From positions 622,358-686,357 of the forward strand of contig OY763929.1 in the NCBI GenBank assembly GCA_963667675.1: DNA of 64,000 nucleotides, written 5' to 3'. Positions 11,800 through 40,482 of the stretch are shown piece after piece. Origin of the DNA: Dehalococcoidia bacterium. Lineage in GTDB: Bacteria; Chloroflexota; Dehalococcoidia; Lucifugimonadales; UBA3495. The notes beneath the pieces were generated by a model. The model was not told where the DNA came from. It ran no database searches and worked only from the letters and a program-made list of their open reading frames with translations. Positions within the stretch are counted from its first letter, which is position 1. The number at the start of each line of letters is the position of its first letter. A program made the translations under genes and the position numbers.

Positions 11800-11959
11800 A
11801 GAAGAATTAACATCGATTACCTCCCTCGCCAGAAGTTCGTTTATGCTGCTCGGCGAAGAATGGCGAGTTGAGTTCCTCCAGGCGATTGGCGCCGAATTGG
11901 ATGCCCGTACTTCTCAACCCTCGGACCGCACTGCATTCGCCGCTTTGTTGACTGGATAG
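11792..11959 (+). CDS. Small acidic ORF (55 aa) inside the methyltransferase operon
   Basis: This ORF was found manually because it is below the track cutoff. Its ATG overlaps the stop of the upstream methyltransferase (ccATGActga). It translates to MTEEELTSITSLARSSFMLLGEEWRVEFLQAIGAELDARTSQPSDRTAFAALLTG. No family was recognised. Confidence 0.25.
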   Translation: MTEEELTSITSLARSSFMLLGEEWRVEFLQAIGAELDARTSQPSDRTAFAALLTG

Positions 11960-11967
11960 CCCTGGCC

Positions 11968-14096: not shown

Positions 14097-14108
14097 AGGA
14101 GTCTTGGT

Positions 14109-15492: not shown

Positions 15493-15623
15493 CAGCGCAC
15501 TAAACGACAGCGCGAATCTGAGGCGGCACGGTGACTGCCATACTCCCTAGTCTGGCAATCCTGGCGCACTGGGCGAAGCTTTGAGGGACTCGTGGAAGTT
15601 GTACAGCAAGTGCGGGCAGGTAA

Positions 15624-15700
15624 TGGAGGCGACGGGCGGATTCGAACCGCCGAATAGAGGTTTTGCAGACCTCCGCCTTAGTCCACTTGGCTACGTCGCC
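15624..15700 (-). tRNA. tRNA-Cys (anticodon GCA)
   Basis: The reverse complement reads GGCGACG…CUGCAAA anticodon loop…GGTTCGAATCC…CGTCGCC-U-CCA and folds as a 77-nt cloverleaf. Confidence 0.9.
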
Positions 15701-15712
15701 CCTGGTTAGGCC

Positions 15713-15799
15713 TGGTGCCGAGGGCGGGATTTGAACCCACACAGGCGCACGCCCACGGCCCCCTCAAGACCGCGTGTCTACCAATTCCACCACCTCGGC
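15713..15799 (-). tRNA. tRNA-Leu (anticodon GAG)
   Basis: The reverse complement reads GCCGAGG…anticodon stem CGGTC/GGCCG with loop UUGAGGG…long variable arm…GGTTCAAATCC…CCTCGGC-A-CCA. Confidence 0.9.
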
Positions 15800-23502: not shown

Positions 23503-23620
23503 TAGTACCTCTGCCCAAGCTATAGCCGGGCTGTGTCTGAAGCTACGCTTTTATCTTACCGGAGCGCCTCGTAAATTGCAAAAAGGCGGATAGCGAAAAT
23601 ACGGGCAATTCGCTGCCCCC

Positions 23621-23715
23621 CGTTCGCCCTGAGTCAGTCGAAGGGCCTGCCCTGAGGCTCTCGAAGGGGCCCCGCCCCCAACGCGTCATTCCGAGCGAAG
23701 CCGAGGAATCTAGGG
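23621..23715. repeat. REP-like palindromic element cluster (type B plus type A)
   Basis: The type B copy is cgttcgccctgag…gtcgaaggg…ctcgaagggg at 23621-23669. The type A hairpin is gtcATTCCGAGcgaagcCGAGGAATctaggg at 23686-23715. Confidence 0.7.
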
Positions 23716-24800: not shown

Positions 24801-26717
24801 CTAGGCCGTCGCCGGAATCTCCTGGGCCCCCTCGCCCAAGGTTGCCGCCGCCTTGTCAGGGAAAAAGGCCCGCAGCACCCGTTGGGCGATTCCGTCGGCG
24901 TCCAACTCCAACCGGTGGCGCTGGTCGGCCGCGGTGCCATGTTCTATGAATTCGTCCGGCATGCCTATACGGTGGACGGATACGTCGTCCATCCCCGCGT
25001 CGGACAGGGCTTCCAGCACCGCCGAGCCGAATCCGCCGGCCAGCACGTTTTCCTCCACGGTCACGATTCGGCGGGTCCTGCTGGCCGCATCCAGGAGCAG
25101 GTCAACGTCCAGCGGCTTTACGAACACCGGGTCTACGACGCCGCAGGAAACGCCGCATCTCTCCAGTTCTTCCGCCGCAGCCAGGGCGGCCGAGGTCGAC
25201 TTGCCCAAGGCGAAGATCACCGCGTCCTGGCCCTCCCTGATAACCGTTCCTTTGCCAAGTGGCAACTCCTTGAGTTCCCCGTCCAGCGCCGCGCCGACGG
25301 CGGCCCCTCGGGCAATACGGATAGCGAAGGGGCCTTGGTGCTTGTAGGCGGTGTAGACCAGGTGCTGCAGTTGGTTTTCGTCCCTCGGCGCCGCAACCAC
25401 CGCGTTGGGCAGGCACCTCAGGTAAGAGATGTCGAAAGCGCCGTGGTGTGTCTTGCCGTCCTCACCCACTATCCCCGCCCGGTCGGCTATCAGCCCCACC
25501 GGCAGGTTCTGTAGGCACACGTCGTGCACTATCTGGTCAAAGGCCCGTTGTAGAAACGTCGAGTATATCGACACGAACGGCTTCAGCCCGTGGGACGCCA
25601 TTCCGGCCGCCATGCTCACGGCGTTCTGCTCGGCTATGCCCACGTCGAAGACCCGGTCCGGGAATTCGCCCCGCACTTCGGCCAGGCCGGTACCCTCCAG
25701 CATCGCCGCGCTTATGCCTACCACGCCGTCGTCCTCCCGCATGATGCGGGATATGGTCTGCGCGAAGACCTTAGAGTACGTGGGAGCTCCCGAACTATCG
25801 CCCAGCGGCGAACTGGGCTGGTGGAACTTCACGGGATCGTCCTCCGCCGGTTCGTACCCGTGGCCTTTGTGGGTCACCACGTGTATCAGCGGTACCGAGC
25901 CCGTGGACTTCATGGCTTGCCGCAGCGTCTGTTCCAGTTGCTTGAAGTTATGGCCGTCCACCGGGCCCAAGTACTGAAAGCCCATCTCGGTCCAGAACAT
26001 CGTCGGAACAATCGCTCCGGCCAGCCCGGTGTTCAACCGCTTGACCAGCCGGTACATCAGTTCCCCTGTGGGCACCTTCTTGGAGATGCGTCTCACCCGC
26101 CCCACCATGGCCTGGTATTCAGGGTGGGTGATTAAGCGCTTTCGCCAGTTGGTTAGAAAGCCGATGTTCTCCGAGATGGACATCCCGTTGTCGTTCAGGA
26201 TGACTATCAACCCCTTAGGGTTCAGGTGCACGATGTTGTTCACCGCCTCGAAGCTGGACCCCGAGGTCATTGCCCCGTCCCCGACGACGGCGATGGTCCA
26301 GGAACCGTCCTCCCGCTTGGCTGCGCCTTCGGCTATGCCCAGGGCTATGGAGAGACCGGTTCCTGCGTGGCCCGCGCACAGGGTGTCGTGAGGGCTCTCG
26401 TTGGGCTCTCCGAACCCCGATAGGCCCCCTTCCAGGCGAATGGCTTGAAAGCCCTCCCTCCGCCCCGTCACCAGCTTGTGGGTATAGGTCTGGTTGGTCG
26501 TGTCCCAGACGATACTGTCCTTGGGGCTGTCGAAGACCCGGTGCAACGCCAGCGTAAGCTCGACCACCCCCAGGTTGGAAGCCAGGTGGCCGCCCCGCTC
26601 GGTTATGACCGAGATAATGGCCTGGCGGGCCTCCTTCGCAACTTGGGCTAACTGCCGGTAGTTGAGCCCTTTCAGGTCTTCGGGGCTGTCGATTCGGTCC
26701 AAGAGTTGGTCGGCCAT
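24801..26717 (-). CDS. dxs: 1-deoxy-D-xylulose-5-phosphate synthase
   Basis: The ORF begins MADQLLDRIDSPEDLKGL and has TPP-binding GHAGTGLS and GDGAMTSG motifs. AAGGAG precedes the ATG at 26717. Confidence 0.95.
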   Translation of the reverse strand: MADQLLDRIDSPEDLKGLNYRQLAQVAKEARQAIISVITERGGHLASNLGVVELTLALHRVFDSPKDSIVWDTTNQTYTHKLVTGRREGFQAIRLEGGLSGFGEPNESPHDTLCAGHAGTGLSIALGIAEGAAKREDGSWTIAVVGDGAMTSGSSFEAVNNIVHLNPKGLIVILNDNGMSISENIGFLTNWRKRLITHPEYQAMVGRVRRISKKVPTGELMYRLVKRLNTGLAGAIVPTMFWTEMGFQYLGPVDGHNFKQLEQTLRQAMKSTGSVPLIHVVTHKGHGYEPAEDDPVKFHQPSSPLGDSSGAPTYSKVFAQTISRIMREDDGVVGISAAMLEGTGLAEVRGEFPDRVFDVGIAEQNAVSMAAGMASHGLKPFVSIYSTFLQRAFDQIVHDVCLQNLPVGLIADRAGIVGEDGKTHHGAFDISYLRCLPNAVVAAPRDENQLQHLVYTAYKHQGPFAIRIARGAAVGAALDGELKELPLGKGTVIREGQDAVIFALGKSTSAALAAAEELERCGVSCGVVDPVFVKPLDVDLLLDAASRTRRIVTVEENVLAGGFGSAVLEALSDAGMDDVSVHRIGMPDEFIEHGTAADQRHRLELDADGIAQRVLRAFFPDKAAATLGEGAQEIPATA

Positions 26718-26856
26718 GTCGGAACTCCTTGGCAAGTGTCAACGGACGCAGAAACCCACTACAGCTTTGCGCCAGATAATTCTAGGCGCATGAGGCCCAC
26801 ATTACAAGTTGGCGTGACTACAGCACAGTTAACATTGTTGAGAAGCGCCCCCACTC

Positions 26857-27078
26857 GTCATTCCGGCCCCCGAGCCGGAATCCAGAAATACCGGCCCCAA
26901 TCCTGCCCATAGTAACCCCACCCCGCCCTGTCATTTCGAGCGAAGCCGAGAAATCTCAAACCCCGCCCTCCAACCTCGAAATTGCGCCCTCACTGATACT
27001 TGCCCCCTTCCGTTCACCCTGAGGTTCTCGAAGGGCCTGCCCTGGTCCCGTCGAAGGGGGAAATCGAAGGGTCCGCCG
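26857..27078. repeat. REP-like palindromic element cluster (two type A plus one type B)
   Basis: It holds gtcATTCCGGCccccgaGCCGGAATccag at 26857-26887 and gtcATTTCGAGcgaagcCGAGAAATctc at 26930-26960. A type B copy, cgttcaccctgag…tcgaaggg…tcgaaggggg…atcgaaggg, lies at 27011-27078. Confidence 0.7.
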
Positions 27079-27089
27079 CCATCCCGCCC

Positions 27090-27210
27090 AAAAAAGTAGA
27101 GGACAGGCCGTAGCCTGCCCCCTCATTTGTTGCCATAAGGCTTGTTAACGGAACCTCCCCGATCTCCCATCGGATATAATACCGTTTCAGCCTCTCGGCA
27201 AAGCCTCTAA
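27090..27210 (-). ncRNA. Predicted tracrRNA (divergent from cas9)
   Basis: The minus strand at 27180-27144 reads AUUAUAUCCGAUGGGAGAUCGGGGAGGUUCCGUUAAC. This is complementary to the minus-strand crRNA repeat GUUGCGGUUCCUCCCCGAUCUCCCAUCGGCUAUAAU, with a 17-nt perfect core plus a bulge and mismatches. It is followed by AAGCC… and a GC hairpin, GGGCAGGC-UACG-GCCUGUCC, then a U6 tract (the A-run at 27090-27095). The 5' end is not determined. A candidate TGGTATACT extended -10 lies on the minus strand at 27218-27226. Confidence 0.7.
27175..27180 (+). promoter_or_regulatory. Candidate -10 box (TATAAT) for cas9, derived from the repeat-like sequence
   Basis: The plus strand of the anti-repeat region is a degenerate copy of the CRISPR repeat. 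It ends in TATAAT about 70-80 nt upstream of the cas9 start. No clear -35 is present. Confidence 0.35.
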
Positions 27211-27258
27211 CTTGGTGAGTATACCACCGCTTAAATCTAACTGCAAACGGTGACGGCA

Positions 27259-30200
27259 ATGACAAACGTCAAAGACAAAAAGTACCGCCTCGGCCTCGAC
27301 TTGGGCACCAATTCCATCGGCTGGGCCGCGGTTAGCCTGGACGACAATGACGAACCCTGTGGCGTGCTGGGCATGGGCGTCCGCATCTTCCCCGACGGGC
27401 GCGATGCTCAAAGCAAGACCTCCAACGCCGTCGACCGCCGCATGGCCCGTGGCCAACGCCGCCGCCGCGACCGCTACCTCGAGCGGCGCCGCGACTTGAT
27501 GGATGCCTTGGTCGAGTTTGGCCTCATGCCCCAGGATGCGGAGCAACGTAAAGACTTGCAGACCCTCGATCCTTACGCGCTCCGGGCTAAGGCCCTTGAT
27601 GAACCCTTGGAACCCTCCGAATTGGCCCGCGCCCTGTTCCACTTGAACCAGCGGCGCGGCTTCAAGTCCAACCGAAAAGCAGACACTGACGAGGTCGAAG
27701 GAAGATCGCTCAGTGAGCGAATCGGCGAACTGCGCCGCCAAATGCAGGAAACCAGCGCTCGCACCTTGGGCGAGTTCCTGTATCGCCGCCGCGTAAATAG
27801 CGAGACGGTCCGCGCCCGTCCCGACCTCAGACTCTATCCCGACCGCGCCATGTATCTGGAAGAGTTCTGCAAAATCCGGGCTGCCCAAAAACCGCATCAG
27901 CCCCTGACGCCCGATCAGTGGGACAAGCTGAAAGAAATCATTTTCCACCAGCGTCCCCTCGAACCTGTGGACCCCGGCTGGTGCCAGTTCGAGTACGAAA
28001 ACGACGAAAAGCGGGCCGCGAAGGCTCTGCCGGTCTTCCAGGAGTTTCGCATCCTCCAGGAAGTCAATAACATCAGGGTGCGGGTTGGCTCCCAGCCGGA
28101 ACGTCGTCTCGATGAACGAGAACGAGGGGCGGTTCTGGCGAGGCTCCGTTCCGGCAAGGACATAGACTTCGGCAAGCTTACCGGAGACTTGAGGAAGCTG
28201 CTGGCGGAAGCTGACTTCAACCTGGCTCTGGGCGGACGAGAGAAGATAAAGGGAGATGAGACAACCGCCAGGCTCGCCTCATCCCCACAGCCGGCCAAGG
28301 GAGACAAGCCAGCTAAGCCCGGGTTGTTCGGCGATAAGTGGCTCAACCTCCCCATTGACCGGCGCAACGAAATCGTAAAGTTCCTCCTGAATACCGAGGA
28401 CCCGGACAAGGTCCGGGAAAAAGCAATTCAAGAATGGGGACTTAACACCGCCCAAGCCGACGCTGTTGCCCGCGTGTCTTTGGTGGCCGGCTACGGTAGC
28501 CTTAGTGAAAAGGCCATAAACAAGCTCCTGCCTCACCTGGAAGGCGGGATGCGGTATGACGAGGCCGTCAAAAAGGAGTACAAACACCATTCCGACTTCC
28601 GCAACGAAGAAGCCCACGACAGCCTGCCCTACTACGGCAAAGTCCTGCCCCGAGACGCCGTGGGCGCCAACTCCAAGAAAGCCCCGGAGATAGACGGCGA
28701 AGTAGCCCGCTATGGACGCTTCCCCAATCCCACAGTCCACATCGGCCTCAACCAACTCCGCCGCGTCGTCAACCGGCTTATTGAAGCCCACGGCAAGCCC
28801 CAGGACGTTGTTGTCGAGTTGACCCGCGACTTGAAGCTGAACCCGCAGCAGAAGCGAGACCTCCTCAAACAGCAACGAGAAGGCGGCCAGAGCAACATTC
28901 GTTTTACCGAAATGTTGCAGTCAATGGGACAGGACGTCACCCCCAACGTACTCCGCAAGCTTCGCCTTTGGGAGGAGCAGGGCCCGCCCCAGGCCAGAGT
29001 CTGCCCTTATACTGGCAGGCGACTTTCATGCGAGATGGTCGTGTCCGAGCAGACCGAAGTTGACCACATCCTGCCCTACTCTAGAACCCTGGACAATTCA
29101 CCGTCCAACATGGTGGTCTGCATCGCCGCCGCCAACCGCTTTAAGGGCGATCGCTCGCCCGATGAAGCCTTTAGCAGCAACCCGCAGAACTACAGCTACC
29201 AGGAAATCCTGGACCGCGTAGCCAAGTTCCCAGACAACAAGAAATGGCGCTTCCAGCCCGACGCCATGAAGCGGTTTGAAGAAGATGACCGGTTCCTGGA
29301 CCGCCAGCTAAACGAGACTAGCTACCTATCCCGCACCGCAAAGAACTACCTGGCCTACCTCTACGACGAGAAAGGCGAGGGCCGCACCCGCGTCCGCGCC
29401 GCGCCTGGCCGCATGACCGCCCTGCTCCGCCGCGGGTGGTGCTTGGAAGGGATGCTGCGGACGTCGCCCGAGGGAGAGATAACTCGCAAGCAGCGCGACG
29501 ACCACCGCCACCATGCCGTCGATGCCTTTGTCGTCGCTTGCACGACCCAGGGATTGCTCCAGAAGTTCGCCCGCGCCGCCGGAGCGTCACACAATTCCGA
29601 GGAAAGGCTGGCTGCTTTGGCCGGTGAAACCCCTCCCTGGGAAGGCTTTGACCGAAACAAGCTGAAGCCCTTCCTCGGTAAGATAGTCGTCTCCTACAAG
29701 CCCGACCACGGCACGCGCGGCGCAAAGACCAAGTCCACTACCGGCCAACTCCACAAAGAGACCGCCTACGGGTTGGTCGAATTCTCAGAGAACGGCCCGT
29801 CCAAGGTGGTTACTCGCAAGAAGCTGGACGCCGTCAAGAAGCGAAAGGACCTGGAGTCCGTGCGCGACTCTGTAATGCGGGATGCCCTGCTCAAGCTGTG
29901 GGATGACGTGGCAAGAGAAGGCGGGGAAGTGGGGAGTTTCTCAGACCGGGCCGCCAAAGAAGGTGTGCTGCTCGAAAAAGGCCGCCGTCAGACGGTGCGT
30001 CGGGTGCGTGTGCTCGATAAACAGACCGTCATACCCATCAAGCGCGGCAAGGGGCACCCTGAGGTCGGAAAACCCTACAAGGGCTACCTGCTAGGGGGCA
30101 ACGCCTGGGCCGACATGTGGCAGATGCCCGACAAGCAAAAAACCTGGAAGATGGTCGTAGTGCCAACTTTTCATGCCAATCAGCCGGGTTTTAAGCTGGA

Positions 30201-30495
30201 ACAGTTCCGCCCCCACGCCGATGCCAAGAAGCTCTTCAGAATTCAAATCGACGACATGGGAGCCCTGGGCGATGGAGCTGAGCGCCGTATTGTGCGCGTC
30301 AGGAAAATCACCAACGCAACATCTGGCGCATTCGTAGTATTGGATGAACACAATCAAGCTAATGTGGCAGACCGTGTAGGAAAAGACATGAAAGAAAATA
30401 GGTACTCTGCCCGGCAACTCAAGCAGTTGGGGTTCCGCAAAGTCGGCGTAGACGAAATCGGCCGCGTGCTGGACCCCGGCCCCCGCAACCCATGA
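27259..30495 (+). CDS. cas9: Cas9 endonuclease, type II-C-like (about 1078 aa)
   Basis: It has RuvC-I YRLGLDLGTNSIGWA, an Arg-rich bridge helix RMARGQRRRRDRYLERRR, RuvC-II VVVELTRD, HNH EVDHILPYSRTLDNSPSNMVVCIAAANRFKGDRSP, and RuvC-III DDHRHHAVDAFVVA. An alternative start is GTG 27250. Confidence 0.95.
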   Translation: MTNVKDKKYRLGLDLGTNSIGWAAVSLDDNDEPCGVLGMGVRIFPDGRDAQSKTSNAVDRRMARGQRRRRDRYLERRRDLMDALVEFGLMPQDAEQRKDLQTLDPYALRAKALDEPLEPSELARALFHLNQRRGFKSNRKADTDEVEGRSLSERIGELRRQMQETSARTLGEFLYRRRVNSETVRARPDLRLYPDRAMYLEEFCKIRAAQKPHQPLTPDQWDKLKEIIFHQRPLEPVDPGWCQFEYENDEKRAAKALPVFQEFRILQEVNNIRVRVGSQPERRLDERERGAVLARLRSGKDIDFGKLTGDLRKLLAEADFNLALGGREKIKGDETTARLASSPQPAKGDKPAKPGLFGDKWLNLPIDRRNEIVKFLLNTEDPDKVREKAIQEWGLNTAQADAVARVSLVAGYGSLSEKAINKLLPHLEGGMRYDEAVKKEYKHHSDFRNEEAHDSLPYYGKVLPRDAVGANSKKAPEIDGEVARYGRFPNPTVHIGLNQLRRVVNRLIEAHGKPQDVVVELTRDLKLNPQQKRDLLKQQREGGQSNIRFTEMLQSMGQDVTPNVLRKLRLWEEQGPPQARVCPYTGRRLSCEMVVSEQTEVDHILPYSRTLDNSPSNMVVCIAAANRFKGDRSPDEAFSSNPQNYSYQEILDRVAKFPDNKKWRFQPDAMKRFEEDDRFLDRQLNETSYLSRTAKNYLAYLYDEKGEGRTRVRAAPGRMTALLRRGWCLEGMLRTSPEGEITRKQRDDHRHHAVDAFVVACTTQGLLQKFARAAGASHNSEERLAALAGETPPWEGFDRNKLKPFLGKIVVSYKPDHGTRGAKTKSTTGQLHKETAYGLVEFSENGPSKVVTRKKLDAVKKRKDLESVRDSVMRDALLKLWDDVAREGGEVGSFSDRAAKEGVLLEKGRRQTVRRVRVLDKQTVIPIKRGKGHPEVGKPYKGYLLGGNAWADMWQMPDKQKTWKMVVVPTFHANQPGFKLEQFRPHADAKKLFRIQIDDMGALGDGAERRIVRVRKITNATSGAFVVLDEHNQANVADRVGKDMKENRYSARQLKQLGFRKVGVDEIGRVLDPGPRNP

Positions 30496-31403
30496 TTGGC
30501 CGCGTCATCGAAATAGCCGGCGAGGGCCGCCACCTCGCCCGCAGCCGTGGCCTGATGACCGTCTCCCAGGACGGCGCTGAGGTCGGGCGCGTGCCCTTGG
30601 ACGACATCGGCGTCCTCCTCTGCAACGCCCGCGGCCTCACCTACTCCAACGACCTGATGACCGAGCTTGCCCACCGCGGCGCCTCGGTGGTGATGTGCGG
30701 CGACAGGTTCCTCCCCGTGGCCTGGGTCTGGCCCTTGGAAGGCCACCACGTCCAGGCCCTGCGGATGCGCCGCCAGTTGGAGGCTGGTCTCCCCCTTCGC
30801 AAGCGCCTCTGGCAGGCCCTCGTAAAGGGAAAAATCACCCAGCAGTCCAACGTGTTGAAGCTGCTGGAAGTTTCCGGCGGCAGCCTTGATGCCCTGGCGC
30901 AGCGGGTCAAGTCCGGCGACCCCGGCAACGTGGAAGCCCAGGCCGCCAGGCTGTACTGGCCCATGCTCTTCGGCAGGAACTTCAGGCGGGAACGTTTCGG
31001 CCCCATGCCCAACCCCCTCCTCAACTACGGCTACACCGTCCTGCGCGCCTCCGCCGCCCGCGCCTTGGTCGCCTCCGGTCTCCACCCCTCCCTGGGCATC
31101 CACCACAGCAACCGTACCAACAGCTTATGCCTGGTGGACGACCTCATGGAGCCATTCCGCCCCTTTGTGGACTACGTCGTCTCCGTGCTGGTATCCAACC
31201 AGCGCGAGGAAATGACCATCGAGGTCAGGCGCGACCTCGCCTCGGTCCTGGTAATGGACCTCGCTACTGACCGTGGGACCACTCCCCTTCAGACCTGCCT
31301 GGAACGCGCCGCCCAGTCCCTGGCCCAGTCCTTCGAGACCGGCAAGCCGGAACTGGTTCTACCCGACCGGCTCATCTCCCGCGGCCTGCCTGCCATTGCC
31401 TAG
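30492..31403 (+). CDS. cas1: CRISPR-associated endonuclease Cas1 (type II)
   Basis: The 303-aa ORF has an ATGA overlap with the cas9 stop. It shows a Cas1 alpha-helical domain pattern (NPLLNYGYTVLR…GLHPSLGIHH…LVDDLMEPFRPFVD). Confidence 0.95.
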   Translation: MIGRVIEIAGEGRHLARSRGLMTVSQDGAEVGRVPLDDIGVLLCNARGLTYSNDLMTELAHRGASVVMCGDRFLPVAWVWPLEGHHVQALRMRRQLEAGLPLRKRLWQALVKGKITQQSNVLKLLEVSGGSLDALAQRVKSGDPGNVEAQAARLYWPMLFGRNFRRERFGPMPNPLLNYGYTVLRASAARALVASGLHPSLGIHHSNRTNSLCLVDDLMEPFRPFVDYVVSVLVSNQREEMTIEVRRDLASVLVMDLATDRGTTPLQTCLERAAQSLAQSFETGKPELVLPDRLISRGLPAIA

Positions 31404-31427
31404 CCGTCATCCCGGCCCTACTCTTTC

Positions 31428-31502
31428 GTCATTCCGGCCCCCGAGCCGGAATCCAGGGAATCCCCATGCCCAACCGTCTTTCCGGCGGAAGCCGGAATCC
31501 AG
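31428..31502. repeat. 75-bp double-hairpin repeat element, copy A (between cas1 and cas2)
   Basis: The sequence is gtcattCCGGCccccgaGCCGGaatccagggaatccccatgcccaaccgtctttCCGGCggaaGCCGGaatccag. It differs from copy B at 3 positions. Confidence 0.85.
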
Positions 31503-31603
31503 AAGCGTAATAAACCATCACCTCAATGAGCGCAAGGAAGTGTGTATATCCCCCCTTCGCAAAGCGCAAGGGGGCTAGGGGGATGCCCCGCCCCCACTTT
31601 CCA

Positions 31604-31678
31604 GTCATTCCGGCCCCCGAGCCGGAATCCAGGGAATCCCCATGCGTAACCGTCTTTCCGGCGGAAGCCGGAATCTAG
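31604..31678. repeat. 75-bp double-hairpin repeat element, copy B (between cas1 and cas2)
   Basis: This is a direct repeat of 31428-31502, offset by 176 bp, with the same two GC hairpins. Confidence 0.85.
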
Positions 31679-31786
31679 GAACTGGACCCCAGGTTGAAAG
31701 ACGCCCATGCACCCTCCCAAATTCATGCCCTTGAGAAATTGCCTAAATGTCTCCGTTCTGCCGGGCAGCGGCTGAGGCATTAGGCC

Positions 31787-32113
31787 GTGCTTTCCGGCTA
31801 CCGTCTCATGTGGATGATGGTCCTGTTCGACCTGCCGGTCCTCACCGATAAGGAGCGGCGGGCCGCCAATAAGTTCCGCAACTTCCTGATGGACCAGGGT
31901 TTCGACCGCTGCCAGTTGTCCGTCTACCTGCGCTTCTGCGCCGGCAAAGAGCAGGCCCAGGTCTATACCAAGCGGGTCCAGGGGGCATTGCCCGAATCAG
32001 GCGACGTCCAGATTATCTACTTCACCGACAAGCAGTACGAAAACATCGTCAGTTTCAGCGGGCCAAGGCGGCGACCGGCCAACAATAATCCGGAGCAATT
32101 CACCCTGTTTTGA
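31787..32113 (+). CDS. cas2: CRISPR-associated endoribonuclease Cas2
   Basis: The 108-aa ORF has a GTG start and an N-terminal beta-strand MWMMVLFDLPV with the conserved Asp. Its position just before the array supports the call. Confidence 0.9.
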   Translation: MLSGYRLMWMMVLFDLPVLTDKERRAANKFRNFLMDQGFDRCQLSVYLRFCAGKEQAQVYTKRVQGALPESGDVQIIYFTDKQYENIVSFSGPRRRPANNNPEQFTLF

Positions 32114-32140
32114 CGCCGCTGGGGACGGTTTTTCAAAGGG

Positions 32141-32181
32141 AAAAAGCTACCCGGCCAAACCTGTCGCCAAGCTGGGCCGGG
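32141..32181 (-). terminator. Candidate terminator for minus-strand CRISPR transcripts
   Basis: On the minus strand, CCCGGCC-(18 nt loop)-GGCCGGG is followed by UAGCUUUUU. It lies between the last transcribed repeat and cas2. There is no T-run on the plus strand. Confidence 0.4.
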
Positions 32182-32189
32182 CACCCTCT

Positions 32190-33603
32190 ATTATAGCCGA
32201 TGGGAGATCGGGGAGGAACCGCAACGATGTCCGACGGCATCCGGTAGTTGGGCTGATTATAGCCGATGGGAGATCGGGGAGGAACCGCAACGGACCGGGC
32301 TGCGCTGCCTAGCATTGCGGAATTATAGCCGATGGGAGATCGGGGAGGAACCGCAACAGCAGTTTCGGGGGTTAGCGTGGGCCGCAAATTATAGCCGATG
32401 GGAGATCGGGGAGGAACCGCAACCTCAGATAGTTTTGCTTGTTCGGGCCGTTCATTATAGCCGATGGGAGATCGGGGAGGAACCGCAACTCAGCTTTCTC
32501 ATGGTCGTGCCATCGGTTCATTATAGCCGATGGGAGATCGGGGAGGAACCGCAACGCGCCAAGTATTAGGGGAAATACGGGCATATTATAGCCGATGGGA
32601 GATCGGGGAGGAACCGCAACAGGTTACGGGATACGCTAGGCTTTTACTTTATTATAGCCGATGGGAGATCGGGGAGGAACCGCAACTAGGCTTACTCCGT
32701 CTCGATAGTTCTGATTATAGCCGATGGGAGATCGGGGAGGAACCGCAACCCATCGTGTGAGGCATGGTCCGCCAAGGCCATTATAGCCGATGGGAGATCG
32801 GGGAGGAACCGCAACCAAATCATCAGGCGCTTGTCCTTGGCCGCATTATAGCCGATGGGAGATCGGGGAGGAACCGCAACGGTCCTCATGTGGCACCCCG
32901 CGCCGGCCGGATTATAGCCGATGGGAGATCGGGGAGGAACCGCAACTTCACCGCGGTGGTAGCCGCACTGGGCGATATTATAGCCGATGGGAGATCGGGG
33001 AGGAACCGCAACCTCCTGTGTGACTTTAAGGATTGGCCAGCGATTATAGCCGATGGGAGATCGGGGAGGAACCGCAACTGGATTATGAGCCGGGGTTCAA
33101 GCTGGTCCATTATAGCCGATGGGAGATCGGGGAGGAACCGCAACGCTACAATCAGCGTCCCCACGGTTAGCGACATTATAGCCGATGGGAGATCGGGGAG
33201 GAACCGCAACTAAAGGTCGTGATGCCTGTGCTCCGGTCCATTATAGCCGATGGGAGATCGGGGAGGAACCGCAACTAGCTGGCCGGTCAAGGTCTCGACG
33301 GCCTGATTATAGCCGATGGGAGATCGGGGAGGAACCGCAACTAGCTGGCCGGTCAAGGTCTCGACGGCCTGATTATAGCCGATGGGAGATCGGGGAGGAA
33401 CCGCAACTAGCTGGCCGGTCAAGGTCTCGACGGCCTGATTATAGCCGATGGGAGATCGGGGAGGAACCGCAACACCGGAATGGTGATGAGCCTTACCCTG
33501 GCCATTATAGCCGATGGGAGATCGGGGAGGAACCGCAACGCATCGCGATGACTATGGTCCCTGCCTTATTATAGCCGATGGGAGATCGGGGAGGAACCGC
33601 AAC
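32190..33603 (-). CRISPR. CRISPR array with 22 identical 36-bp repeats and 21 spacers
   Basis: The repeat on the plus strand is ATTATAGCCGATGGGAGATCGGGGAGGAACCGCAAC. Its reverse complement is GTTGCGGTTCCTCCCCGATCTCCCATCGGCTATAAT. Sixteen spacers are 30 nt, three are 29 nt, one is 28 nt and one is 27 nt. The minus-strand call rests on the GTTG…TATAAT repeat form, the tracrRNA complementarity and the terminator at 32141-32181. Confidence 0.97.
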
Positions 33604-33696
33604 ACGGCCTGATGAAGACGCCAGCAGCAAGTAGAGAAGAAGCCCTGGGCGCTGAACGGAGGAGATTGCGTAAACCCCGCCGCAGGCCGGAGAAAT

Positions 33697-34035
33697 TCAA
33701 GACCCGTCGTGGGTCTGGTCGATGCGGACTATGTCGGCCTGAATCACCGCCATGGCCTGCATCATCCGTTGCAGCGTCTCATCCCGGCGCGCGCTGGAAT
33801 CTTGTAGTTGACGGACAGCCTCATCCGTTCCACGGACTGCTTCATCCGTTCGCTGGACCGCTTCATCCATTCGCCGGACCGCTTCATTCATTCGTCGTAC
33901 AGCCTCAATCATTCGCTCCACCGCTGCTCTCGTTCGCTTCTGGTCCTCATCTATCAGCGCAATCATGTCGGTGGCGTACCGGGTGAATTCTTCCAGGTTG
34001 CCGATCCGGTCTTCCATGCCAGCCTTGCCCTCCAC
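33697..34035 (-). CDS. Hypothetical coiled-coil protein with heptad (21-bp) tandem repeats
   Basis: The 112-aa ORF contains EAVRRM(N/D)-type heptads. They are encoded by five 21-bp tandem units at 33813-33917. No family was recognised. Confidence 0.45.
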   Translation of the reverse strand: MEGKAGMEDRIGNLEEFTRYATDMIALIDEDQKRTRAAVERMIEAVRRMNEAVRRMDEAVQRTDEAVRGTDEAVRQLQDSSARRDETLQRMMQAMAVIQADIVRIDQTHDGS

Positions 34036-34164
34036 TTCCGCGGTTCCCTTGGCGGTCGCGCCCTGCGGGTGTCAGAACAGCATTATAGCCCATGACCCGG
34101 CTGGGAAAAACACAACCATGTCACCCCGAACCATACCCCACTGCTCCCCCGACCTACCCCCACT

Positions 34165-34273
34165 GTCACCCCGAGCGCAGCCGAGGGGTCTAAAGCCCTT
34201 GCCCGCCGCGCATCTTTCCTCTCCGTCCGCCGCGTGCCTTCTCCACCCGTTCGCCCTGAGCGTGTCGAAGGGC
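34165..34273. repeat. REP-like palindromic element cluster (type A variant plus type B)
   Basis: It holds gtcACCCCGAGcgcagcCGAGGGGTctaaag at 34165-34195 and cgttcgccctgagcgtgtcgaagggc at 34248-34273. Confidence 0.65.
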
Positions 34274-34578
34274 AAACCCACACCCCGGAAAATGCCCCCA
34301 ATCCTGTCTATCCCATCAATCCCATGAATCCCAGTTCAGACCGCCACTGACATTTCCTCGTTGACGCACCCCAGGCCCAGGCCATAAGCTAGTATCATGT
34401 CGTTTGCACCTCAACCACCAACCCGCAAGGGCGTGCCTGCCGGCCCGCTGCCGGAATCATCCCTGTCCCTTCTATCGAGGGCCGAATACCCCGCGGCGAC
34501 ACCGGATTCGCCGGAAAGGCGAAATGGGACCCAGTGGGACGGAAGTAAAAATTTTAGCCATTAACGAGTCCAACCTGT

Positions 34579-34608
34579 AATGTCGCAAAATGTCCCAGAA
34601 TGTCCCAG
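34579..34608. repeat. Three tandem 10-bp units upstream of glnA
   Basis: The units are AATGTCGCAA, AATGTCCCAG and AATGTCCCAG. They lie about 170 bp upstream of the glnA ATG with helical-turn phasing. Confidence 0.3.
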
Positions 34609-34773
34609 CCGCAAGAAAACCCCTTGAACCGAGACACATTGCCGGCTCCCCAGGCCCCAAATGAGAGCGAATGAGGGGAACCATGCCGCCGCCGGCGTAG
34701 CCCTGAGGTTTCCTCTAAATTCGCTGGCGGGTACAATAGTGGCATCCTGGGCTTCCCCCAAGGAGGGTTCGCA

Positions 34774-36111
34774 ATGGCAGAAAACGGCGCCGCCGAGAGG
34801 GACTTCGTCCTGAGGAGCGCGCGGGAAAACGACGTCAAGTTCGTCCGCCTCTGGTTCACCGACATATTGGGTAACCTCAAGGGCTTCACCATCGACGTAG
34901 ACGACCTGGAAGACGCCATTGAGCAGGGCGTGGGCTTCGACGGCAACGCCATTGAAGGCTTCGCCCGTATCGGTGAGAGCGACATGCGGGCCTTTCCCGA
35001 CCCCTCCACCTTCGCCGTGCTGCCGTGGAGGCCCCGCCAGAACGCCGTGGCCCGGATGTTCTGCGACATCCGCTCCCCCAGCGGCGACCCCTTCATCGGC
35101 GACCCCAGATACGCCCTCAAGCGCAACCTGGAAAGGCTGGCCCAAGCCGGGTTCACCTACTACGTCGGTCCCGAGTTGGAGTATTTCTACTTCCGCGACT
35201 CCGATTCCGCCCAGCCCCTGGACTCCAGCGGGTACTTCGACCAGCTCTCCAGCCAACCCGCCAACGACCTGCGCCGGGACACCGTGCTCAACCTGGCCGA
35301 CATGGGCATTCCCGTCAAATACTCCCACCACGAAGGGGCGCCCAGCCAGCACGAGATAGACCTCCAGTACACCGACGCCCTGACCATGGCCGACAACGTC
35401 ATGACCGCCAAGCTGGTCATCAAAGAACTGGCCCAGCAGCGGGGCGCCCATGCGTCGTTCATGCCCAAGCCCATTGCCGGCAAAAACGGCTCAGGCATGC
35501 ACACCCACCAGTCCCTGTTCCGAGGCAACAAGAACGCCTTTTTCGACCACGACGACGACCACCGCCTGTCGCTCGTCGGCAAACGCTTCATCGCCGGGTT
35601 GCTCCGCCACGCCCCCGAAATCACCTTGGTGACCAACCAGTGGGTGAACTCCTACAAGCGCCTGGTCCCCGGCTACGAAGCCCCCGTATACGTGTCCTGG
35701 GCCCACGTGGACCGCTCGGACCTGGTCCGGGTGCCCTCATACAAGCCGGGCTACGAGAATTCCATGCGCGTCGAATACCGCGCCCCAGACCCCGCCTGCA
35801 ATCCCTACCTGGCCTTCAGCGCCATGCTGGGCGCGGGAATGCGCGGCGTCGAGGAAGAGTACCCGCTGCCGCCCCAGGTGGAGGGCGACGTCAACGCCAT
35901 GACTCACGACGAGCGCCTGGCCCGGGGCATCAAGACCCTGCCGGGGAGCCTCAGCGAAGCCATAGCCGAGGCCGAAGACGGAGAACTTCTCAGGAACACC
36001 CTGGGAGAACACATCCTGAACAGCGTCATACGCAACAAGCGAATGGAGTGGGAAGAATACCGGGCCACCGTCACCGACTACGAAGTCGCCCGCTACCTCC
36101 CGACACTCTAG
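34774..36111 (+). CDS. glnA: Glutamine synthetase, type I
   Basis: The 445-aa ORF has VKFVRLWFTDILGNLKGF, HHEGAPSQHEI and NGSGMHTHQSLF motifs. Confidence 0.95.
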   Translation: MAENGAAERDFVLRSARENDVKFVRLWFTDILGNLKGFTIDVDDLEDAIEQGVGFDGNAIEGFARIGESDMRAFPDPSTFAVLPWRPRQNAVARMFCDIRSPSGDPFIGDPRYALKRNLERLAQAGFTYYVGPELEYFYFRDSDSAQPLDSSGYFDQLSSQPANDLRRDTVLNLADMGIPVKYSHHEGAPSQHEIDLQYTDALTMADNVMTAKLVIKELAQQRGAHASFMPKPIAGKNGSGMHTHQSLFRGNKNAFFDHDDDHRLSLVGKRFIAGLLRHAPEITLVTNQWVNSYKRLVPGYEAPVYVSWAHVDRSDLVRVPSYKPGYENSMRVEYRAPDPACNPYLAFSAMLGAGMRGVEEEYPLPPQVEGDVNAMTHDERLARGIKTLPGSLSEAIAEAEDGELLRNTLGEHILNSVIRNKRMEWEEYRATVTDYEVARYLPTL

Positions 36112-36191
36112 CCCCGCCGCCGCTCCCTGGATTCGGTTCCGAGCCGGAGTGATGGGGTTAGCTGGGTGCCGTCCTCGCCGCCAACTAGATA

Positions 36192-36581
36192 TTAGCTTAC
36201 TTGATATACAAAAGTAAGCTCGGATGAGCAGTCATAGATATTAATAGTGCCCAATGCGTAGTATTCCGCATCGTATCCACGTATATCTCTTGCTGTGAAG
36301 TCTACTCTAATTATCCTGTCACCTGAAGAGCCACCTCTGTCTGCAATATTAGTTTTAATATTACGCATACTGTGAGGCACTATTTCTCCATATATGCGTA
36401 TGAGGCCTATAAAGCTCTCATGGTCTCCACTAAAACTTAGGCAGTGCTCTCCTTCTACTGATTCATCTACTGCACTATTTTCATTGTCATTGCTGTTATC
36501 AGCAGTTATAAATCCTATGATAAACAGCAGTACCATGCCCCCAATAATTACAAGGCATCCAGTCTTTAGTGGTGACTGCAA
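36192..36581 (-). CDS. AT-rich ORFan, membrane-anchored hypothetical protein (129 aa)
   Basis: It has an N-terminal TM helix (CLVIIGGMVLLFIIGFI). Its composition is strikingly A/T-rich relative to the flanks. No family was recognised. Confidence 0.5.
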   Translation of the reverse strand: MQSPLKTGCLVIIGGMVLLFIIGFITADNSNDNENSAVDESVEGEHCLSFSGDHESFIGLIRIYGEIVPHSMRNIKTNIADRGGSSGDRIIRVDFTARDIRGYDAEYYALGTINIYDCSSELTFVYQVS

Positions 36582-36612
36582 ACAAGGCCCCCTCGCAACA
36601 AAGAGTTGTGGA

Positions 36613-36713
36613 GACTTAGCCGGTCACCAAAACCCAGCGCAGATTACGAGGGGACATGAAGCACAACCCCTTGTAAATCTGCGCAAATTGGCTACTGTAT
36701 GACCGGCTAAGTC
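36613..36713. other. Nested extended inverted repeat (about 101 nt hairpin)
   Basis: The outer arms are a perfect 14-bp pair, GACTTAGCCGGTCA (36613-36626) and TGACCGGCTAAGTC (36700-36713). The inner arms are GCGCAGATTACGAGGGG (36637-36653) and CCCCTTGTAAATCTGCGC (36667-36684), with one wobble and one bulge. Confidence 0.6.
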
Positions 36714-36844
36714 GAGGGGAGTATAGCTATAAGTTACCTCTAGTGTCAATCAAATTGAGGCACTACCGTGCTTTGATCCCTCCTTGATTCGCTGGTTGGC
36801 CGGCTCTTACACTGTGAAGGGGAAGCGTACCTAGGTTGGTAAGG

Positions 36845-39800
36845 CTACAGACCGAATTTCGCAATGATTCCTTTGAGTTCTGTCTTCGTTTCCTCGTCCA
36901 AGGGCGTTTGGAGCAATTGGTCAATGATAGGTTTCGCTCCGTGCCACATAAACTTTTCGGCGTCCGCCTCGCCAAGTCGGATTAGTAGCTTCGCGAGTGA
37001 ACACGGATACCTAGAGGGTATGTCAGAGTCGGTAAGCCCGAAGAGCAGGTGATCCGGCGGCATCGGCACCACAAGCATATTGAGCGCTAACCCGACTGCC
37101 TCCGGGTAGACCGCCGTTAGGCTGTTGGTCCACTCGAGCATCATCTCTATTTCCTTATGGTCCAGTGGCGCTGGAATACCGTCAAGACGATTTTCCCAGT
37201 ATCCTCTGAGCCAGGTGTTCCACCATTCTAGTTGTGCGGGCTCGTCCAGAGACCGTAGGTGGAATACGATTTCACGTGTAAATTGTTGCCTGACGTCCTG
37301 GTCGGTGCCTGCTATTAGTTTGGTAATCCATTGGTCGGAAGGGCCGGACACAAACCAAGTGAGCAACGAGGTGTATCTCGTGATAAATCTTTGTTTCGTT
37401 GCTGGCGTCATCCTGTCGTCGATGTATTTGACTGTTTCTAAGAACGGGTCTCTTAGCAGTTCGGCGACCGTTGGGTTGAATTGCGACGCGTACGATATGC
37501 CTTCCCATGCGCTTTCGAATTCTTGGTGGTTACGTTCCAGTAGTGGTATCAAGTTTCGCTTAGACCACTCTTCGTCCACCGCCGTTAGAAACGAAATTTG
37601 TGAAGTGAATATTACCCTGGCAAGCTTTCCAGGCAATTCGTGGTCCGCCATTATCGTCGCCAGTACATCCTGGTATTCGATACTGAGCGCTGCCGGCAAC
37701 GCCCTTTGGTGTTTCCTCCATAGGGCGATGCTATGCAGCCAGAATTGAGCGAGCCTTCCTGAAAGGTGGTTCATGGCTTTGGTAAGCCAATCTACTTCTT
37801 CTTGAACTCCTCCGACGTATCGAGTTATTTCGGGTGCGTCAACCGTGCCTGCATAACTATGCAATTTCATGGCGATAGCGTTGGCCTGGGAAAGAAATTC
37901 TGAGATCTTCGAGCCAGTGAATTTTGGGGCTATGCTGCATATTGCATCGGCCATCTCCCTAGTGTGATTTAGGCATAGCTCGTCGTTATCGAGACAGTCC
38001 AGAACTTGGCGAATGTCATCCTCATCTAACTCCGCGTTCGCCCAAGCACTCATAAGACAAGGCCAGAGGTCAGCATCCCACCGGCCCATACTGGCCATTT
38101 CACGCGCCAAATTGAAACCCCAATCAAAGTTTTCCTGCGCAGCTTCCTTAACAGTAGTCAACAAACCTACTCTGCTGCCACTGTCGAGAAATACCGTTGG
38201 TTGATATTCAAGTAACTCCGTCAACAATTCTTTCGCAGGTTTCGCTAGTAGTTCCTCAACTGACAGAGGGCTACTAGCTCGTGTCCATGTTCCTGTCGTC
38301 CAATGCATCAGGAGGTCCGGATGCTCGCGTTGGAGAAATTCCGGGTAGCGAATAAGGATGGCTTCCACAGCTTGTTTAGCCTGAGAGCAATCCGGATCAG
38401 CGTCCAATAGCCAGTGCAGCCATGTGAAACGGCTATAATCCTCCTCGCCCTCTTTGTGCTCATCCTCTTGGTTTGGTCGCCTAAACGACTGGATAGCCTG
38501 GATAAGAGTCTCTCTCACTGCAAAGCCCGCTTTTGGATATGCTTTGCCAATCGCTTGGAAGATTTCATGATGGGTAACTATGTCATGCAAGTTACAATGC
38601 TCCAGCAGCCAGGATATTTTCTCGTCTGCTGGCATATCAATCCACGACAGTGCGTGAATCGCCAGTCGGCGTAGCAGCGGTGCTTCTGAGTCGTTGTAGC
38701 GTTCAGACCACGACTTCACCATATCCGGTTGGTTGACAGCAAGCCATTCGAGGCAGTCCCTTGCAATGTCTATAAGTGCATCAACGCCTCGAGGATATTT
38801 GTCCTGTTCGTGGGGTTCGATAGCGGAGCGCGATAACGTGTCGGAATCCAGTAGGCGCTTACCTTCCCATGCGTTTATTAACGAGTGACGCTCTTCCAAT
38901 CTAAAGGCGGTTTTCTCGAGCAGCGATTCAGCTATTTTCGGCAAGTTGGGTTTCAGGCACTTCTCCCATAAGGGTTGGATGTGGTGGTCAAAGAGGTCTG
39001 AGTTGCGTCTGAAAGACCGCGGGTTGGTTATGCCGCGGCTTTCTGTCATCGAGTCGTAGATTTGCAACAAATTGACCAGCAACCCTTGGCTGGCGCAGTT
39101 TTCGGCCATCTTCTCCAACAGGATATACTTGGAAAAATCCGAGGGAGCTGCGCTTAACAAGAAATGGGCCCATCGGGAAAGGGTCCGTTCATCCGCCTGG
39201 CGTTCAGCGCCTACGCCCATCTGCCACGTAATCTTATTCCACAACGCCGGATTGAGCCTTGGACCGTGGCGTTCTATAAGAGAAAACAGTGCCTTGGGTT
39301 CCTTAGCGGCAAAGCTGCCCAACCACGCGGCCAGCAAACTCTTTTCTTCTGTAAGGTCGCCGTAGGAAAACAGGGCATCGAGATAATTGCGATTGTCCAG
39401 CCAATCGACCCATTCCAGCGATTTCGCTTTCTCAATGAAAAAGCGGGTATATACCGGATCGGCGAGGGCATGTTCTATTACGCCAACGGATTCTTCATCA
39501 AGGGGTGGCGGCCCGGAGGCAATACTGGTGATTTTTTGTTGCCAGTCTAGTATGCCGCGTCGTAAGTAATTTGCGAGGCCTGATACCGCCTCGAACAGTC
39601 CGCTGTAGTCGTCCTCGTCCTCTTGTGGGAATACAATGGGATATATGCCCAAATTGCGCCAACGCTCCGGCTCATCGCTCCGACTGCCAACAAGGGCATA
39701 GCGCCGGTCGCTGTCATCCCTTGGCAGAGATGGAGTCAAGTACGTCATTATCGTGTCATTGTGGCTGTAGCCCACGAACAGTACGATGTGCCTTGCAAAA

Positions 39801-40354: not shown

Positions 40355-40482
40355 CTACCTCGACCGCTCCTTTGCAATCACCCCTTCCTCCCACCCTGTA
40401 CGTGATTCGGAAATCTTGTCCAAACGCCCGCCGCTTGGCTCTTCAAGCACCTTGTAGCTTTACAAGACTTCCGCGAGAATAT

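Follow-up and report, generated by a model that had tools for sequence, protein, structure and literature searches.

A complete, seemingly intact type II-C CRISPR-Cas9 locus with an uncharacterised Cas9 in a Dehalococcoidia bacterium

Genes and RNA elements of the locus

The window (the whole stretch of 64,000 nucleotides that was analysed) carries intact cas9, cas1 and cas2 genes, a perfectly conserved array of 22 repeats and, directly upstream of cas9 on the opposite strand, a tracrRNA gene (Table 1). As judged from these parts, the locus is a complete, seemingly intact type II-C CRISPR-Cas9 immune system. A preliminary description had named a compact system of this type with the same components, and all of them were found.

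Table 1. Features of the CRISPR-Cas9 locus and its surroundings (positions in the window)
Feature	Position	Strand	Details
Segment missing from close syntenic relatives	26836..34703		7.87 kb: CRISPR-Cas locus and REP-rich flanks
tracrRNA, predicted primary transcript	27089..27211	-	5' end inferred from promoter
tracrRNA promoter	27218..27247	-	-35 TTTGCA, 18-nt spacer, extended -10 TGnTATACT (promoter scan)
cas9	27259..30495	+	1078 aa, ATG start; alternative GTG start at 27250; single ORF
cas1, type II class	30492..31403	+	303 aa; TIGR03639 cas1_NMENI 243.4 bits; PF01867
REP-like palindromic element, two copies	31411..31678		92-nt composite, family D3, copies 90% identical
cas2	31787..32113	+	108 aa, GTG start; TIGR01573 64.5 bits; PF09827
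Leader-like flank	32114..32189		between cas2 and first repeat; conserved among relatives
CRISPR array	32190..33603	- (crRNA sense)	22 identical 36-nt repeats, 21 spacers of 27-30 nt
Coiled-coil ORF, unknown function	33697..34035	-	112 aa; just past array, co-directional with crRNA transcription

The features of type II are present: a single large Cas9 with a split RuvC domain (I, II and III) and an inserted HNH domain. The ATG form of the protein is 100% identical to a deposited sequence (P0001) and matches TIGR01865 end to end with 599.5 bits (residues 12-1071 on positions 1-1069 of the 1070 in the profile); Pfam matches are RuvC_III, HNH_4 and Cas9_a. The catalytic residues of RuvC-I (D14), RuvC-II (E520), HNH (D602, H603 and N626) and RuvC-III (H752 and D755) are all there and align with those of HpaCas9. 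Across 28 relatives D602 is nearly invariant and the others are invariant. The intact RuvC and HNH motifs described earlier for a Cas9 of about 1078 aa are thus confirmed, and careful alignment to HpaCas9 and the relatives revealed no mutated catalytic residue.

The start of cas1 overlaps the stop codon of cas9 by 4 nt (ATGA), and three related contigs (L083, L085 and L086) show the same overlap and a cas1 of equal length. The GTG start of cas2 has a GAGG about 10 nt upstream. The gap between both genes is 383 nt wide and holds the D3 copies. In L085 and L086 it measures 10 nt; in L083 it is 137 nt long and contains one REP unit. These REP elements could attenuate the expression of cas2. Family searches on the ORFs of the locus and its flanks confirmed cas1 and cas2 and yielded neither csn2 (the mark of II-A) nor cas4 (the mark of II-B), in agreement with the preliminary description. 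No ORF is located between cas2 and the array, and the flanking ORFs are dxs, glnA and small ORFs without family matches. Grouping with subtype II-C is further indicated by the match of Cas1 to the NMENI model and by the solved structures that match Cas9 best (Hpa, Nme1, ThermoCas9 and GeoCas9), which rank above Sau, St1 and Spy. The Cas9d (II-D) model reaches 117.9 bits against a cut-off of 375.

The array begins 76 nt after cas2 and consists of exactly 22 identical copies of ATTATAGCCGATGGGAGATCGGGGAGGAACCGCAAC, the number given before. Spacers 17 to 19 are identical, so that 19 unique spacers remain. Because the repeat (GUUGCGGUUCCUCCCCGAUCUCCCAUCGGCUAUAAU in crRNA sense) is complementary to the minus-strand tracrRNA, the crRNAs would correspond to the minus strand and thus be antisense to the cas genes. 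An alignment of array flanks gives the consensus ...ACCTGTCnCCAAGCTGGnCCGG...ATCT for the leader-like flank and shows a degenerate last repeat at the cas-distal end in several relatives; new spacers are therefore probably added at the cas2-proximal side. A candidate degenerate 23rd repeat beyond position 33603 was discarded, since its alignment score was no better than that of shuffled sequence.

In crRNA sense the last six letters of every repeat are TATAAT, which may act as an internal promoter; of 54 related II-C repeats, 50 end in TAnnnT. Internal crRNA promoters reportedly occur in Neisseria and Campylobacter. The box in our array has no -35 box and no TG extension, unlike the one in Neisseria, and the repeats were not called by the promoter scan. 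Moreover, pairing with the tracrRNA requires this portion of the repeat in any case, and conservation of the box is therefore no proof of promoter function.

About 10 nt separate the tracrRNA promoter from the start codon of cas9, and the two face in opposite directions; when six related loci are aligned, the promoter pattern TTTGC...GTGnTAnnnT shows no variation. The predicted transcript opens with a 5' leader of roughly 30 nt, followed by the anti-repeat (27180 to 27144), an invariant motif (CCGUUAACAAG), a nexus hairpin (GCC-UUAU-GGC) and, according to a terminator scan, a terminator hairpin of 11 bp (27123 to 27098) followed by U6. A matching anti-repeat had been noted before, and indeed 30 of 36 ungapped positions match the repeat; cofolding gives -57.3 kcal/mol for the full-length duplex against -19.6 +/- 3.6 for shuffled repeats. 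The fold of the tracrRNA has a z-score of -4.67. In ten relatives 8 of the 11 pairs of the 3' hairpin covary, with 96% of cells paired against 38-57% in slid controls. A covariance model matches positions 27089-27180 with 108.6 bits, and an Rfam scan of 26000-35000 returned no family at E <= 1, hence no Rfam model for this tracrRNA. Overall, the predicted tracrRNA gene is well supported by its promoter, anti-repeat duplex, nexus and covarying terminator.

Relation to other Cas9 systems

Identity to this Cas9 is 59% or higher in more than 100 clusters, of which those labelled with an organism are Chloroflexota MAGs. In a search of 5.8 billion proteins the closest relative reached 75% identity; it is encoded on a metagenome contig. 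By sequence comparison, the protein is an uncharacterised orthologue in a large, mostly metagenomic Cas9 clade, and given this membership the system itself is not of a new kind. Literature searches found no publication characterising any member of the clade and nothing relevant on Cas9 in Chloroflexi, Chloroflexota or Dehalococcoidia. Also, a catalogue of 79 tested Cas9 orthologues (main text and 11 supplementary files) makes no mention of Chloroflexi or of a GTTGCGG-type repeat.

We compared the locus with Chloroflexota loci from Dehalococcoidia and Caldilineaceae records (L001-L005 and L061) and from the contigs L083-L086. Among the matches listed their Cas9s are 58-75% identical to ours. 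Gene order is the same, gene sizes are as in this locus, and so are the tracrRNA promoter, nexus and terminator, whereas the genomic neighbourhood differs at each. L085 has the identical repeat, and L061, L083, L084 and L086 have variants of it with one base changed. Two further features recur in L083: the REP unit in the cas1-cas2 gap and, past the array in the same position, a 54% identical homologue of the coiled-coil ORF. Searches of this ORF against Pfam, PHROGs and PADLOC returned sub-threshold coiled-coil noise only; an association with the CRISPR system is possible. Differences concern the REP insertion, which is longer in our locus than in these relatives, an extra hairpin inside the anti-repeat of L001, L003 and L004, and L084, which is without cas1 and cas2.

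Similarity extends to alpha- and betaproteobacterial II-C loci, for instance those of Azospirillum brasilense (L011), Parvibaculaceae (L009), Rhodospirillales (L018) and Acidovorax (L071/L073). These share a repeat family (A.T.TAGC...CCGCAAC on the cas9 strand) and the position, orientation and architecture of the tracrRNA (30-72 bits with the covariance model of the window clade), but the sequences of repeat, anti-repeat and hairpins have diverged, and their Cas9s are about 35-42% identical to ours among the matches listed. The Cas9 of Parvibaculum lavamentivorans, which we take to be a member of this group, has reportedly been tested.

The systems of Nme1Cas9 (PDB 6jdq/6kc8) and HpaCas9 (PDB 8hnt) likewise consist of cas9, cas1 and cas2 with neither csn2 nor cas4. 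Both proteins have the same catalytic motifs, rank first among solved structures by sequence and by fold and have a similar size (1055-1082 aa), and the likeness to Neisseria II-C proposed earlier is therefore upheld for size and gene set. In these two systems the repeats are also 36 nt long and end in a -10-like box, the spacers measure about 30 nt and the array runs antisense to the cas genes. The present locus differs in the repeat sequence, in the tracrRNA located upstream of cas9 on the opposite strand and in the single 3' hairpin after the nexus. The earlier statement that repeat and scaffold are unlike the well-known examples holds for the sequences of Neisseria and Campylobacter, but these elements are not special to this genome: apart from the identical repeat in L085, the covariance model gives a full-length match, equally placed and oriented ahead of cas9, in approximately 70 of 84 related loci searched, alpha- and betaproteobacteria included.

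Against the PDB the best phmmer match of Cas9 reaches 203.5 bits, with HpaCas9, Nme1Cas9 and ThermoCas9 at about 200 bits, and this similarity spans residues 8-776 only. In Foldseek alignments based on a query model with pLDDT 57, identity to these three proteins is 20-23%. Together with the 75% of the nearest database protein, these values agree with the earlier suggestion of an uncharacterised orthologue, and near-identity to a characterised Cas9 was not found. The AlphaFold2 model, built from 28 close relatives, has a pTM of 0.30 and is too poor to judge the PAM-interacting fold; in the Foldseek search with this low-confidence model II-C Cas9s still ranked first, at TM-scores of about 0.2. 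The C-terminal 299 aa yielded no Cas9 match in the PDB, whether queried with the one sequence or with a profile of the clade. This part would form the WED and PAM-interacting region, without a detectable relative among solved structures. Given its lack of similarity to Nme1Cas9 and HpaCas9, their PAM cannot be transferred to this protein.

Genomic setting and spacers

A blastn comparison with the relatives L081 and L082, whose Dxs proteins are 95-97% identical, shows that the 7.87-kb segment is absent there, its place being taken by 1.68 kb that include a second gene for glutamine synthetase. The absence from close syntenic relatives points to a strain-specific insertion, which sits between dxs and glnA. 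Two other defence insertions are found nearby, a methyltransferase/HNH cluster and a DSR1-like sirtuin gene, and this stretch of the chromosome would have gained all three. The flanks of the locus contain REP elements of family D4 (26855-26885) and of families D5 and D6 (26916-27059 and 34151-34296).

Syntenic relatives without the locus might also be expected if it were foreign to the chromosome, that is, an assembly or binning chimera in a metagenome-assembled genome; the records of the relatives resemble metagenome assemblies, and duplicated spacers can arise as artefacts of long-read assembly. We consider this extremely unlikely. The sequence runs on into conserved flanks at both sides, the G+C content of cas9 (0.598) matches that of the window (0.602), families D4-D6 recur elsewhere in the window (at 9308 and 23620-23711), with D4 also present in the cas1-cas2 gap, and the deposited protein P0001 is encoded on a contig of 2.6 Mb.

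All searches for spacer targets were negative. The 19 unique spacers gave no protospacer in GenBank phages and PLSDB plasmids, and all spacers gave none in the 64-kb window (up to 7 mismatches) or in 80 related loci (up to 5 mismatches). Exact 24-mers had no match in IMG/VR (eight spacers) or JGI metagenomes (two spacers), and 204 spacers from ten related arrays matched the related loci at chance level only. With no protospacer from these searches, no PAM could be inferred.

These results bear on the question whether the main role of the system could be other than phage defence, such as limiting natural transformation or regulating host genes. In Neisseria, II-C spacers target DNA acquired by transformation, and in Francisella Cas9 regulates a host gene. 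By analogy such a role might be argued here, the more so as the G+C content of the spacers equals that of the window (0.60), which would fit targets from related genomes. It nevertheless seems very unlikely, as the window and the related loci contain no spacer match, the neighbours are strain-specific defence genes and the anatomy is no different from that of a standard interference system.

The missing matches might alternatively be a sign of decay, with a locus that is still recognisable but past spacer acquisition and interference and heading for loss. REP elements have entered the locus at the cas1-cas2 gap and in both flanks, the spacer in three copies points to recombination rather than acquisition, close relatives miss the locus, and L084 has already lost cas1 and cas2. 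On the other hand, no truncation affects the three cas ORFs, which are co-linear with those of relatives, no catalytic residue is affected, all 22 repeats are identical and the promoter and hairpins of the tracrRNA are intact. The REP unit in the gap is common to L083 and thus seems to have been long tolerated, and absent protospacer matches are the norm for poorly sampled environmental lineages. Such a relic is therefore unlikely. Instead, we favour a chromosomal type II-C CRISPR-Cas9 adaptive immune system that is functional by appearance, to which we assign a probability of roughly 85%.

Predicted mode of action and significance

The predicted activity of this Cas9 is RNA-guided, PAM-dependent cleavage of double-stranded DNA. 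The tracrRNA would be transcribed from its conserved extended -10 promoter (from about 27211 to 27089) and the crRNAs from the minus strand of the array; the latter may start inside each spacer from the box at the repeat end, as in Neisseria meningitidis and Campylobacter jejuni. The 36-nt repeat would then pair with the anti-repeat in a duplex with a 2x2 U-U internal loop, a one-base bulge and one mismatch, and the duplex, the nexus and the 3' hairpin would jointly be bound by Cas9. The enzyme is then expected to cut DNA complementary to a guide of approximately 22-30 nt, beside a PAM on the 3' side. New spacers would be inserted by Cas1 and Cas2 at the cas2-proximal end, beside the conserved 76-nt leader-like flank.

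In biological terms, this is an ordinary case of a strain-specific defence insertion, which opens no new question. Its clade is large in metagenomes, and neither a published characterisation nor a solved structure of a member was found. Tentatively, and with less than even odds, it might be argued that in this clade (labelled members being Chloroflexota) the PAM-interacting region is a sequence family of its own with a PAM outside the characterised II-C range, and that -10 boxes in repeat and anti-repeat may drive both the guide RNAs and cas9. Genome editing benefits from compact Cas9s (about 1080 aa) with new PAMs because they fit viral delivery vectors. As for the boxes, GGATATAAT is found on the plus strand of the anti-repeat, some 80 nt ahead of the start codon of cas9. 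Should this box be active, a single repeat-derived element would be the source of promoters for the crRNAs as well as for cas9.

Composition of the locus and the Cas9 protein

The cas genes, a repeat array and a matching anti-repeat are all present (see the table), in agreement with the complete II-C-like locus claimed in the preliminary description. Neither csn2 nor cas4 is found: the flanking ORFs are dxs, glnA and small ORFs without a family match, and between cas2 and the array no room is left.

Features of the CRISPR-Cas9 locus, its surroundings and related contigs
Feature	Sequence	Position	Strand	Details
REP-like palindrome clusters	window	9308; 23620-23711; 26855-27059; 31411-31678; 34151-34296		several families, intergenic
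Methyltransferase segment	window	10826-15571		absent from L081/L082; three DNA methyltransferase genes and a 364-aa ORF
tRNA-Cys and tRNA-Leu	window	15624-15799		
CRISPR-Cas insertion	window	26836-34703		7.87 kb
Terminator-like hairpin	window	27123 to 27098	-	followed by T6
Anti-repeat	window	27144-27180	- (tracrRNA sense)	+ strand similar to the repeat's reverse complement
-10 hexamer, putative cas9 promoter box	window	27173-27180	+	~80 nt 5' of the cas9 start codon
Predicted tracrRNA start	window	near 27211	-	
tracrRNA promoter-like site	window	27247 to 27218	-	-35 TTTGCA, 18-nt spacer, extended -10 TGnTATACT
cas9	window	27250 (GTG) or 27259 (ATG) to 30495	+	single ORF
cas1	window	30492-31403	+	TIGR03639, 243 bits; 4-nt overlap with the cas9 stop codon
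Composite REP copies	window	31411-31678		two copies of 92 nt
cas2	window	31787-32113	+	TIGR01573, 64.5 bits; downstream of cas1
CRISPR array	window	32190-33603	- (crRNA sense)	exactly 22 identical 36-nt repeats, 21 spacers of 27-30 nt
Spacers 17-19	window	33276-33437		identical
Coiled-coil ORF	window	33697-34035	-	112 aa; 93 nt past the last repeat, co-directional with crRNA transcription
21-nt tandem repeat	window	33810-33915		heptads of the coiled-coil ORF
DSR1-like segment	window	36121-40483		absent from L081/L082; 2.5 kb past the array
SIR2_2/DUF4020 protein	window	36845-40354	-	1169 aa; PADLOC Dsr1 (defence-associated sirtuin), 242.8 bits
tracrRNA with extra hairpin	L001; L003; L004	5709-5837; 5778-5899; 10758-10880		
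Second glutamine synthetase gene	L081; L082	8353-9776; 8354-9778		474 aa
Coiled-coil ORF homologue	L083	11946-12203		54% identical
CRISPR-Cas9 locus	L084	5001-9363		12-repeat array 77 nt past cas9

Cas9 matches the equivalog profile TIGR01865 from end to end (599.5 bits, residues 12-1071 on profile positions 1-1069 of 1070), with further Pfam matches to RuvC_III, HNH_4 and Cas9_a. The 1078-aa ATG form has 100% identity to a deposited protein, P0001, from a 2.6-Mb contig. The RuvC-I/II/III and HNH motifs, described earlier as intact, indeed contain all catalytic residues: D14 (RuvC-I), E520 (RuvC-II), D602/H603/N626 (HNH) and H752/D755 (RuvC-III). These align with the catalytic residues of HpaCas9, and in an alignment of 28 relatives all are invariant except D602, which is nearly so. 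The best solved structures are of type II-C, namely HpaCas9 (8hnt; 203.5 bits over residues 8-776) followed by Nme1Cas9, ThermoCas9 and GeoCas9, at 20-23% identity in Foldseek alignments. The last 299 residues, where the WED and PAM-interacting domains should lie, match no solved structure either as a single sequence or as a clade profile.

The gap between cas1 and cas2 measures 383 nt in the window, 137 nt in L083 (the contig with the closest Cas9 relative) and 10 nt in L085 and L086 (contigs with related Cas9). In the window it is occupied by the two composite copies of REP-like palindromic elements; the L083 gap has one such unit and the ~110 nt preceding cas2 in common with it. In another related contig, L084 (Cas9 69% identical), the locus consists of tracrRNA, cas9 and array, without cas1 and cas2.

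Guide RNAs and the array

Because the sole terminator-like hairpin with a T-run lies on the minus strand, we place the tracrRNA on that strand, divergent from cas9. Its promoter pattern, TTTGC...GTGnTAnnnT, is invariant in an alignment of the window and five relatives, and the promoter position predicts a primary transcript of ~122 nt. The short interval in front of cas9 is taken up by this promoter; cas9 must therefore have a promoter that overlaps the tracrRNA gene. On its plus strand the anti-repeat terminates in GGATATAAT, which is a perfect -10 hexamer and as such a candidate cas9 promoter box.

Ten related tracrRNAs retain both the invariant motif CCGTTAACAAG and a three-pair nexus hairpin, and in their 11-bp 3' hairpin eight pairs are changed on both sides. 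Paired cells amount to 96% in this set, a share that drops to 38-57% on sliding the partners by 1-3 columns. On cofolding, repeat and tracrRNA form a duplex across all 36 nt, with a 2x2 U-U internal loop, a one-base bulge and one mismatch (-57.3 kcal/mol; shuffled repeats, -19.6 +/- 3.6). A candidate sgRNA would read N22-24 + GUUGCGGUUCCUCCCCGAUCUCCC + GAAA + GGGAGAUCGGGGAGGUUCCGUUAACAAGCCUUAUGGCAACAAAUGAGGGGGCAGGCUACGGCCUGUCCUCUACUUUUUU. In three loci of Chloroflexota MAGs (L001, L003 and L004) an additional hairpin of ~20-35 nt interrupts the tracrRNA exactly where the repeat:anti-repeat duplex has its internal loop; the L004 tracrRNA gene is located between cas2 and the array, not upstream of cas9.

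To pair with the tracrRNA, the crRNAs have to come from the minus strand of the array, antisense to the cas genes, an arrangement common to this locus and those of Neisseria and Campylobacter. In crRNA sense the repeat is GUUGCGG...GGCUAUAAU. TATAAT ends every repeat in the window, and TAnnnT ends 50 of 54 related II-C repeats. Neisseria and Campylobacter arrays reportedly have their own promoter in each repeat; the TATAAT ends would be consistent with internal crRNA promoters, rather than proof of them. Relatives conserve the 76-nt stretch that separates cas2 from the first repeat, and in several of them the last repeat, at the cas-distal end of the array, is degenerate; together this suggests that new spacers are probably added beside cas2. 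In the window array no degenerate repeat is detectable.

Besides the identical spacers in the window, duplicated spacers or spacer blocks occur in six of nine related arrays (L083, L084, L085, L086, L002 and L004). They may stem either from recombination that recurs in the clade between identical repeats or from a long-read assembly artefact. The spacer search proposed initially as a way to the PAM gave no protospacer: none of the unique spacers matches the phage and plasmid collections, the window or the related loci, and exact 24-mers were without match in IMG/VR (eight spacers) and in JGI metagenomes (two spacers). For the coiled-coil ORF past the array a family search gave no assignment; its L083 homologue occupies the equivalent position.

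Genomic setting

Two contigs syntenic with the window (L081 and L082; Dxs 95-97% identical, synteny at 85-93% nucleotide identity) lack the CRISPR-Cas locus and have 1.68 kb in place of the insertion. Exactly there, between dxs and glnA, a second gene for glutamine synthetase is found in both contigs; in L081 it is split into two ORFs. Of the methyltransferases in the segment adjoining the tRNA genes, one is of the D12 class and two are of the N6_N4 class, one of the latter being fused to an HNH endonuclease; the 364-aa ORF has no family match. This segment looks like a restriction-modification island. By comparison with both contigs, three insertions within 30 kb are strain-specific, the CRISPR locus being one of them, and at least one of the three, with the DSR1-like gene, is a recognised defence system.

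The cas9 loci of relatives lie in unrelated neighbourhoods, which is consistent with horizontal movement. At 0.598, cas9 matches the window (0.602) in G+C content. Both flanks of the insertion contain the same two REP families in the same order. REP families of the flanks recur at other sites of the window, and one flank family is also present between cas1 and cas2. The matching G+C content and the shared REP elements suggest that the locus has long resided here, and they speak against an assembly chimera.

Relatives and novelty of the Cas9

The nearest Cas9 among 5.8 billion proteins is 75% identical, and more than 100 Cas9 clusters are found there at 59-70% identity. Among the matches listed for GTDB species genomes, relatives at 58-66% derive from Dehalococcoidia and Caldilineaceae MAGs, followed by alpha- and betaproteobacterial II-C Cas9 at ~35-42%; all organism-labelled relatives that are at least 58% identical, again among the matches listed, are Chloroflexota. 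A literature search yielded no paper on Chloroflexota Cas9, and a catalogue of 79 tested orthologues mentions neither Chloroflexi nor a GTTGCGG-type repeat (main text and 11 supplementary files). On these grounds we regard the Cas9 as uncharacterised, as the preliminary description had proposed.

The distinct guide scaffold proposed along with it is shared more widely. L085 (Cas9 68% identical) has an identical repeat, one-base variants occur in L061 (a Chloroflexota MAG), L083, L084 and L086, and most proteobacterial relatives have the general repeat pattern in common with the window. With a tracrRNA covariance model for the clade, ~70 of the 84 related loci that were searched gave a full-length match, placed upstream of cas9 and on the strand opposite to it (for example Rhodospirillales with 72 bits, Azospirillum with 52, Parvibaculaceae with 43 and Acidovorax with ~30). 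The scaffold is not unique to the window locus.

Overall, the sequence evidence identifies the locus as a type II-C system of standard architecture, with a divergent, uncharacterised Cas9 that belongs to a populous environmental clade. Its value is practical, as a compact nuclease candidate whose predicted guide is well defined, and its biological interest is modest.
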